Assembly (NCBI RefSeq): GCF_054482525.1
Contig: NZ_CM137006.1
Length of the DNA: 64,000 bases
Reading direction: 5' to 3' (one strand)
Shown piece by piece: positions 56,001-59,000 of this stretch. Within the stretch, counting starts at the first letter, position 1. Each line of letters starts with the position of its first letter. The position numbers were made by a program.

Positions 56001-59000
56001 TGACAGCGTGAGTGTTTTTTCAGCCGCATTTTTTTGCGTCAGTACTTTATTATATTGCGGATCGCCAGGTTGCAGTTGCGACAGCTCTTGATTCAATGTA
56101 TTGACTTTTTTCTCCAGCGATTGCACCTTTTTATCGACCGTATTGTAATTATTATTGGCCTGATGCATGATGTCGTCGGCTTTTTGCGCGGAATCTAATG
56201 ACGAGGAGTAAGCGTCACTTAATTCACGAAACTTATTATGTGCCATTTCGTGTCGAAGCAGGGTGCTGTCAAGGTTATTATGCAAACGTGTTGTAATATC
56301 CTGATCGGCAATGCCTGTTAGATTACCCAAAATCATCGTCAGGCGGGCATCGTTCGTCTTTGCTGTAGTGGCGTTGTCGGAATCTGAAACCTGCATTTCA
56401 GGCGGAGCAAGCATAGGTTTGTTTTCAAGACGAGCGCGAATATCGTTATCAAGGGACTTCGGGTTTTTATTAAGCCGCATGGGATCAACTTGCGTTTTGT
56501 TGCTGTCCTGCAGTCTTTTTTCCGCATCGCTATACTGTGTGCGCAATGTTTCGCTGATTTGTTCAAACGTGATCGTTTGTCCCGTAATCGGTGCCGACAT
56601 AATTCACCTCCTTTTTAAGCTATCATCGGGTGTAATTAATTCTTTTTTATTTAACTCATGGCAGATGTTTATTCCCATCTAAAATGGCATCAACGGGAAA
56701 GTAAGTAATGTGTTTATTGTTATTCTTCTCATTTATTTTATCGCCATGGTTATTTTTTAAATCAACCGGGGCTTCCTCATGATATTTCCTGATTAACTCT
56801 TCAGGCGTAAAAGAAGACTTTTTTCCGTTTATGTTCATTTTGCCGACTCACTCTGTTTGAACTTCTTCTTCGGTATTGGCTGTCAAGAGTTCAAGATAAG
56901 CAGTAGCCATCTCTTTAACTTTTTCATTTTGGCTGTAGGTTACGACTGTATTAAATAACTCCGTGGCCATTTTAGTGTTTTTTAAGCCCATCTGGCATTG
57001 GCCCATATAATAAACTAAAGAGAAATCGTTATCGGGAGATAGCATTAAACAGATATGATACATGTCGAATGCCTTTTGATAATCTTTCTTCAACTGACAG
57101 ACGGCGGCATATCCTTTTAAATAGTTATAATTTTGGAAATCATAAATACAGAGAAATTTAAAAAAGAGCTCAGCTTCGTCAAGTCTTCCTTTTTCATAAA
57201 AGTTATAAGCGTAAGCATAAACGCCTTCAAGGGTATCCGGAGTAATGCCATGCAGCTCTGCAAGTGTTGCTCCCATACCTAATGCACGTTCGAACTTACT
57301 GGCAATTTCTTTATTTTCTTCTAAATCCAGATTTGCGCTTTCCATCTCTACTCTCTCCTTTCGAACATTCTTTGTTCAGACTTCACCATTTTTTAGAGGG
57401 GGGTGATATCAAAATTCGCTCATTTTTATGCCCATCCGTTGGGCTTCCTTTTCTGCATTAAAAACAAGTATTGTTTCAATGAGATAAGATTTTCTATGTG
57501 ATGAAATGAAAACAATGTAGAGGGAAATTTATCCACAATCCTGATGAACGGGTTCAATTTTGATTGGAATTTGAAAAAGCAGGTGATTTACTGATGTGCG
57601 AGCGTACGTCAGCGGCTGCTGGCCTGAGCGCGGAGGTGTGCGAAATTCACATATCCGGGCATTCCACCTTACCCAGCGCTTCCCAGTAGTTATTCTGATT
57701 ATTACGCTCCATCGCCACAATAGCTTCGCGGATATGTTGTTTGTTACTCTCATCAGACAACATTAATTTTTCCCACGCTTCGTCTGATAATGACGCCTGT
57801 GGCGTGCAAATTTTACGTAAATCTTGCAATACCGTGCTCTTTTCTTTTGCCGACTGTAGAGAACTGAATGGCGATTCGGCCTGAGAAATGGCTGGGAAAG
57901 TCAGGAATACGGTAATCATGAGTAGCATCGTTGGCTTCATAGCTGCAACCTTCTGCAAATGTGCATCGAATGAAGCATAAGTGTAGTTTGCTTTTGCCGC
58001 TCTCATCATGCTGTACGAAAGGTGTTTGCGTGGTCAGTAAGAAGTGCCAGTTTTATATACCTTTTTCTTCTATTCGATAGCTTTTCGTTTTTTAAATCGT
58101 AGTGATCTTGCCATTATAGTCAGTTAACGATTAAAAAAAGGATAAAAAAGTGAAACTGACAACACATCATCTACGGGCGGGGGCCGCATTATTACTGGCA
58201 GGAATTCTGCTGGCAGGTTGCGACCAGAGCAGCAGCGATGAAAAGCACATTAAAGTGGCGTTATTAATGGCGCAGAACAAGATGTCGCGGAAGTCGCTAA
58301 AAAGGTGGCAAAAGAGAAATATGGCCTCGATGTTGAACTGGTAGGATTTAGCGGTTCGTTGCTACCGAACGATGCGACAAATCATGGCGAGCTTGATGCG
58401 AACGTCTTCCAGCATCGACCCTTTCTTGAACAAGATAATCAGGCGCATGGTTATAAACTGGTAGCGGTGGGAAATACGTTTGTCTTCCCCATGGCGGGTT
58501 ATTCCAAAAAAATCAAAACAGTGGCGCAAATAAAAGAAGGCGCGACAGTGGCGATCCCCAACGACCCGACCAACCTTGGTCGCGCGCTTTTACTGTTGCA
58601 AAAAGAGAAGCTAATTACTCTGAAAGAGGGAAAAGGGTTACTACCTACCGCGCTGGATATAACCGAGAATCCTCGTCATTTGCAGATTATGGAACTCGAG
58701 GGGGCGCAGCTCCCGCGCGTACTGGATGATCCCAAAGTTGATGTGGCGATTATCAGCACCACTTACATTCAGCAGACCGGGCTTTCTCCGGTGCACGACA
58801 GCGTATTTATTGAAGATAAGAATTCGCCGTATGTGAATATTCTGGTAGCACGGGAAGATAATAAGAATGCAGAAAACGTGAAGGAATTTCTGCAATCTTA
58901 TCAATCATCCGAAGTCGCTAAAGCGGCAGAAACCATCTTTAACGGTGGCGCGGTGCCTGGCTGGTAATTCTCACTCATCCCGCGCCGGACGATTTATTTT

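Follow-up and report, generated by a model that had tools for sequence, protein, structure and literature searches.

The closest described system is the nlpA gene of Escherichia coli K-12 (b3661, lipoprotein-28, NP_418117.1), which lies between yicL and yicS near selC and encodes a lipoprotein with the lipobox LAGC, an aspartate at position +2 and a PF03180 domain. An aspartate at +2 of a lipoprotein is the rule for retention in the inner membrane. The gene is reportedly non-essential, as Yamaguchi and Inouye are said to have found in 1988, and nlpA mutants are said (McBroom and colleagues, 2006) to under-produce outer-membrane vesicles.

NlpA has a paralogue in MetQ, the lipoprotein that binds methionine for the ABC importer MetNIQ; MetQ belongs to the same Pfam family and is likewise a lipid-anchored substrate-binding protein of the inner membrane. 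E. coli has no MetQ homologue other than NlpA (PMC3228920). Both proteins bind MetNI, the association of MetQ with MetNI needs the lipid anchor for its stability (PMC6697469), and overproduced NlpA complements MetQ depletion (Zhang et al. 2003, cited in PMC6697469). MetQ is encoded at a separate locus and is not the gene affected here.

Here we analyzed one stretch of 64,000 nucleotides (NCBI RefSeq assembly GCF_054482525.1, contig NZ_CM137006.1), which is called the window. It carries nlpA at the same chromosomal site as K-12, in the common gene order selC-setC-yicL-nlpA-yicS, and with the same lipobox, Asp at +2 and PF03180 domain. The K-12 gene is intact and 819 bp long, as is that of strain N3, whereas the gene of the window is 818 bp long and has a deletion at codons 36-37. 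The features of the locus are as follows.

57647-57940, minus strand: yicS, upstream neighbour of nlpA; the gene order supports orthology
58139-58142, plus strand: AGGA resembling a Shine-Dalgarno sequence, 7 nt before the GTG start, read from the sequence
58150-58967, plus strand: nlpA (lipoprotein-28) pseudogene, 818 bp, its frame broken by a 1-bp deletion
58150-58344, plus strand: N-terminal frameshifted ORF of 64 aa, GTG start, TAG stop at 58342-58344
58257-58258, plus strand: deletion site, GG in the window against GGG in the nearest intact alleles
58257-58967, plus strand: C-terminal reading frame, NlpA residues 37-272 and the native stop, open and with no further lesion
58305-58967, plus strand: longest ORF of the C-terminal frame in the ORF list, 220 aa, GTG start
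58971-59894, minus strand: yicL, convergent downstream neighbour of nlpA; the gene order supports orthology

Reading frames of nlpA and the missing base

Translation of 58150-58257 gives NlpA residues 1-36, MKLTTHHLRAGAALLLAGILLAGCDQSSSDEKHIKV, and translation from 58257 gives residues 37-272 in the next frame, running from GVINGAEQDV... to ...GGAVPGW and the native stop at 58967 (237 codons with the stop, no internal stop). The original prediction had placed the N-terminus of NlpA and the remainder of the protein in different frames, and the two translations bear this out. The disruption is read straight from the letters of the sequence, and chance does not enter into it. Base 58257 belongs to both frames, as the last NlpA codon of the N-terminal one uses it too. 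In the C-terminal frame a TAA at 58251-58253 blocks reading from further upstream, and this frame is open only from 58254. The start codon is GTG, where K-12 has ATG; the nlpA of N3 is also GTG-initiated and is annotated as intact.

The 64-aa ORF is composed of the signal peptide, the lipobox LAGC (Cys24, Asp25), 12 further native residues and an out-of-frame tail of 28 aa, ALLMAQNKMSRKSLKRWQKRNMASMLNW, which has no resemblance to any part of NlpA. The lipoprotein signal peptide and lipobox read MKLTTHHLRAGAALLLAGILLAG-C24-D25, and the motif matches that of K-12. A functional member of the family needs its signal peptide, lipobox and binding domain in one uninterrupted ORF; in the nlpA of the window these parts lie in two separate frames. 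When the missing base is restored, a protein of 272 aa is obtained which is identical to K-12 NlpA at 268/272 positions (98.5%), the changes being T10A, A31E, D173E and P254S, and which matches PF03180 (Lipoprotein_9) over profile positions 1-236 of 236 (E = 1.3e-93, 313 bits, against a cut-off of 27). At the nucleotide level the window gene differs from K-12 by the deletion, by GTG in place of the ATG start and by 20 other substitutions, of which three change one amino acid each and two fall in the single codon of T10A. As judged from sequence and gene order, the gene is the orthologue of K-12 nlpA carrying a clone-specific frameshift.

In a three-way alignment of the genes of the window, N3 and K-12 the sole indel is at gene position 108, where the window has AAAGTGGCGTT, N3 AAAGTGGGCGTT and K-12 AAAGTTGGCGTT. 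In codons the same site is AAA GTG GCG TT in the window, AAA GTG GGC GTT in N3 and AAA GTT GGC GTT in K-12; the lesion at codons 36-37 is therefore GTG GGC to GTGGC at 58255-58259, with GG kept at 58257-58258. An apparent 1-bp deletion had been placed at the junction aaagt|ggcgtt near 58256, and the alignment with K-12 and N3 puts the indel there; the comparison with K-12 nlpA that had been suggested as a check gives one missing base. Since the nearest intact alleles read GTGGGC, the base lost is one G of a three-G run, and on these alleles the loss of a T is only apparent, arising when K-12 (GTTGGC) is taken as the reference. One-base deletions of this kind usually arise by slippage in a short homopolymer. 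In the ancestor of the clone one G dropped out of GGG at codons 36-37, most likely through replication slippage, and the lesion is mechanistically ordinary.

The three-way alignment, with its single indel, holds no compensating indel in nlpA. Besides the deletion, a single synonymous substitution, at 58520, separates the pseudogene from the intact allele of N3; hence the inactivation is recent, and no further decay has followed it. Apart from the frameshift the gene is pristine, with no independent sign of decay.

Distribution of the deletion and the carrier clone

The deletion was searched in a reference set of 5426 complete E. coli genomes. With a query of 951 bp, nlpA was present in 5368 of the 5426, and a 100% match at the length of 951 bp was obtained only in PCN033 (a porcine extraintestinal pathogen), SCU-102 (a human commensal from California) and 19KM1776 (from a dog in Switzerland), while the other matches listed span 952 bp. 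An exact match to a 60-mer with the junction at its centre is confined to the same 3/5426 genomes; in 1920 other genomes the 60-mer matches at 95-99% identity, and among the matches listed all span 61 bp, that is, they carry the extra base. In the three carriers nlpA is annotated as a pseudogene (PPECC33_RS19995 in PCN033, HHJ21_RS21545 in SCU-102 and AACG32_RS14765 in 19KM1776), identical to the window across the 951 bp searched and with the same deletion. The NCBI annotation pipeline PGAP calls each of them "frameshifted" at the equivalent of 58150-58967, the very coordinates that the original prediction had given for the disrupted gene. The frameshift is thus already known from public annotation, as RefSeq flags the pseudogene, and GenBank holds split 'lipoprotein-28' products, such as EIH11609.1 and EIH11484.1 of E. 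coli 97.0259.

Beyond complete genomes, the exact 64-aa frameshift product was found on 235 contigs (NCBI, ENA and Logan) in 330 collection blocks, including one metagenome scaffold, and the 220-aa downstream ORF, which gene callers report as a separate product, on 385 contigs of public assemblies. Four further assemblies that were retrieved differ from the window by 0-2 SNPs over 6.2 kb around nlpA and all have GG. Hence GG is found in all eight clone sequences examined, i.e. the three complete genomes, the window and these four assemblies. A query of 11.8 kb across the locus gave at least 99% identity only in the three carriers; the nearest genomes outside the clone, AST215 (98.5%) and N3 (98.3% over the same 11.8 kb), both have an intact nlpA of 819 bp.

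The window is itself an additional genome of this clone. Over 50 kb it differs from SCU-102 by 5 SNPs and a 7-bp indel, from 19KM1776 by 6 SNPs and two indels, and from PCN033 by SNPs, by an insertion of IS200C and by the size of iatC. Private to the window are the SNPs at 17164, 32244, 36580 and 39524 and a 7-bp deletion in adeQ, and by these private differences it counts as a fourth genome of the clone, sequenced independently of the other three. The genome paper of PCN033 places that strain in serogroup O11 and phylogenetic group D; the same paper gives no multilocus sequence type (MLST) and does not mention nlpA. A literature search for nlpA together with pseudogene in E. coli returned nothing relevant.

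The original prediction had left two readings side by side, a pseudogene or a sequencing error, and of these the first stands, the same deletion being present in three complete genomes and its product on 235 contigs. That the genome truly has GGG and an intact nlpA, the missing base being an error of sequencing or assembly, may be thought of because one-base miscalls in homopolymers are a common artefact, PCN033 was read on Roche 454, a platform liable to homopolymer errors, so that this genome alone would be weak evidence, and the remainder of nlpA has no other lesion. Against this, the run has no more than 2-3 bases, and one and the same deletion was obtained in three complete genomes that differ in laboratory, year, country and host, as well as in the window as a distinct fourth genome. 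The product is also found on contigs of independent assemblies, some of them re-assembled from raw runs by Logan. With so many other assemblies in agreement, the 454 origin of PCN033 no longer matters. The deletion also coincides exactly with clonal relatedness in the 11.8-kb flank query; it tracks clonal ancestry and so behaves as an inherited mutation, unlike a random error. We regard an error as very improbable, and on these sequence comparisons the deletion is a real inherited mutation, with sequencing error effectively excluded.

An indel within a mononucleotide run could also be the mark of a phase-variable (contingency) switch, in which a change between GG and GGG turns nlpA off and on. 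In contingency loci the tract has about 7 bases or more, against only 2-3 G here. Moreover, GG is invariant in every member of the clone examined, no genome with clone-like flanks in the 11.8-kb query has GGG, and the other matches of the junction 60-mer do not contain the exact deleted sequence. Such a switch was rejected on the short tract and its invariance within the clone, and its probability is next to nil.

The inherited deletion may have some practical use. A single site, GG at 58257-58258, cleanly marks a clone found in pig, human and dog. PCN033, a model extraintestinal pathogen, is a natural nlpA mutant and its users should be aware of this, since work with it on vesicle formation or on the uptake of methionine and D-methionine could be affected. 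The practical value is limited to annotation and typing, and no new biological question is opened.

Residual function and tolerance of the loss

Translation from the native GTG would yield the signal peptide, the lipobox, 13 mature NlpA residues and 28 unrelated, strongly basic residues before the stop ending at 58344. The whole substrate-binding domain (PF03180) would be left downstream in the other frame, with neither an export signal nor a good ribosome-binding site, so that no functional inner-membrane NlpA would be made.

The 64-aa product contains no Pfam domain and no part of the binding domain. In the 220-aa ORF the match to PF03180 is limited to profile positions 21-236, so that the first 20 positions are missing, and this ORF has no signal peptide and no lipobox. 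Its GTG start has, as the only purine-rich motif, an AAGG which is immediately adjacent, and there is no properly spaced ribosome-binding site.

A functional NlpA might still be produced in two ways, by a programmed or high-frequency -1 slip of the ribosome or of transcription at GTGGC, or by separate translation of the 220-aa ORF. In favour of this, a -1 slip after GTG in which the G is read again as part of GGC would give back exactly the native sequence, and the downstream frame is fully intact. The first 195 nt of nlpA (58150-58344), however, contain no slippery heptamer of the X XXY YYZ type, rescue is confined to 58254-58344 because of the TAA that closes the C-terminal frame, and the GG run is far too short for transcriptional slippage; a programmed -1 frameshift was rejected for the lack of the heptamer and the narrowness of this interval. 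The 220-aa ORF was rejected as a working protein on its anatomy, namely the missing signal peptide and lipobox, the incomplete domain and the poor ribosome-binding site. Lipid anchoring also matters for the paralogue: as MetQ needs its anchor for stable association with MetNI (PMC6697469), a cytoplasmic and incomplete fragment of NlpA is very unlikely to be functional. Taken as a whole, continued production of functional NlpA by either way is hardly to be expected.

The loss of NlpA in the clone is probably tolerated, as the gene is non-essential and its paralogue MetQ shares MetNI. In the carrier SCU-102, metN, metI and metQ are all annotated as intact, and the intact paralogous metNIQ plausibly accounts for the tolerance. 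We therefore hold, with high confidence, that nlpA is a genuine and recent pseudogene fixed in one phylogroup-D E. coli clone, which is predicted to make no functional NlpA and probably tolerates its loss.

It is very unlikely that the 64-aa product is a new small lipoprotein of the inner membrane, or that the loss of nlpA, instead of being neutral decay, is an adaptive or marker event of a widely spread clone, for example by altering methionine uptake or the output of outer-membrane vesicles. The 64-aa product has kept its signal peptide and lipobox intact, its mature form would be of 41 aa, and its 28-residue tail has 7 Lys/Arg and no acidic residue.

Other differences in the region

The adenine permease gene adeQ (window 34988-36315, plus strand) has the 7-bp deletion at about 35958-35960 which is private to the window genome; SCU-102, 19KM1776 and PCN033 all have the 7 extra bases at this site. 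In the window the adeQ frame stops at the TGA at 35975-35977, after 329/444 codons. The adeQ junction is found in none of the 5426 complete genomes, where the best match, of 89.6%, corresponds to a 7-bp gap. This lesion is either a real strain-specific pseudogene or an assembly error.

The IS200C insertion is present only in PCN033, between ivbL and tisB (positions 39927-40385 of PCN033 locus L006, corresponding to about 22150 in the window); the window, SCU-102 and 19KM1776 have no IS200C between these genes. Between uhpA and ilvN (window 25541-27770) there are two hypothetical genes of 1470 bp and 483 bp along with about 1 kb of unannotated DNA. Genes for a toxin of the RelE/ParE family and a helix-turn-helix antitoxin lie at window 36936-37596 between nepI and yicN, an interval which in K-12 is only a short intergenic gap.

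An island of 18 kb occupies window 39216-57345 between nepI and yicS, which are adjacent in K-12, where the island is absent. The island carries translocator genes of type III secretion. Its genes encode a SycD/LcrH-type chaperone, a SctE/SipB-type translocon protein, a hypothetical protein of 376 aa and an IpaD/SipD-type needle-tip protein, and it also carries the HilA-like regulator eilA and iatC (air/eaeX), an inverse-autotransporter adhesin gene of 11.1 kb. We take this island to correspond to the eip/eilA/air locus of enteroaggregative E. coli 042. The iatC gene (39216-50333, plus strand) contains a long tandem array at window 42650-48190, made up of repeats of about 292 bp with 83-88% mutual identity, which probably encode Ig-like domains. 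In the 454-based assembly of PCN033, iatC is smaller by about 2 kb and its annotation is divided between two CDS (5457 and 3627 bp); this could be a repeat collapse or a true difference in copy number.

The hypothetical gene of 1131 bp (53676-54806, minus strand) lies between the SctE translocon gene and the needle-tip gene. It is intact in the window, SCU-102 and PCN033; in 19KM1776 a 1-bp deletion at window 54089 splits it into CDS of 216 bp and 786 bp. Within the tRNA-Sec gene selC (window 61826-61920, minus strand) 19KM1776 shares only the 3'-terminal 21 nt with the window; the match ends at 61846 and the two diverge from 61847. Beyond this point 19KM1776 carries an element that includes a primase-helicase gene and has the look of an island inserted at selC, among the compared strains only in 19KM1776.
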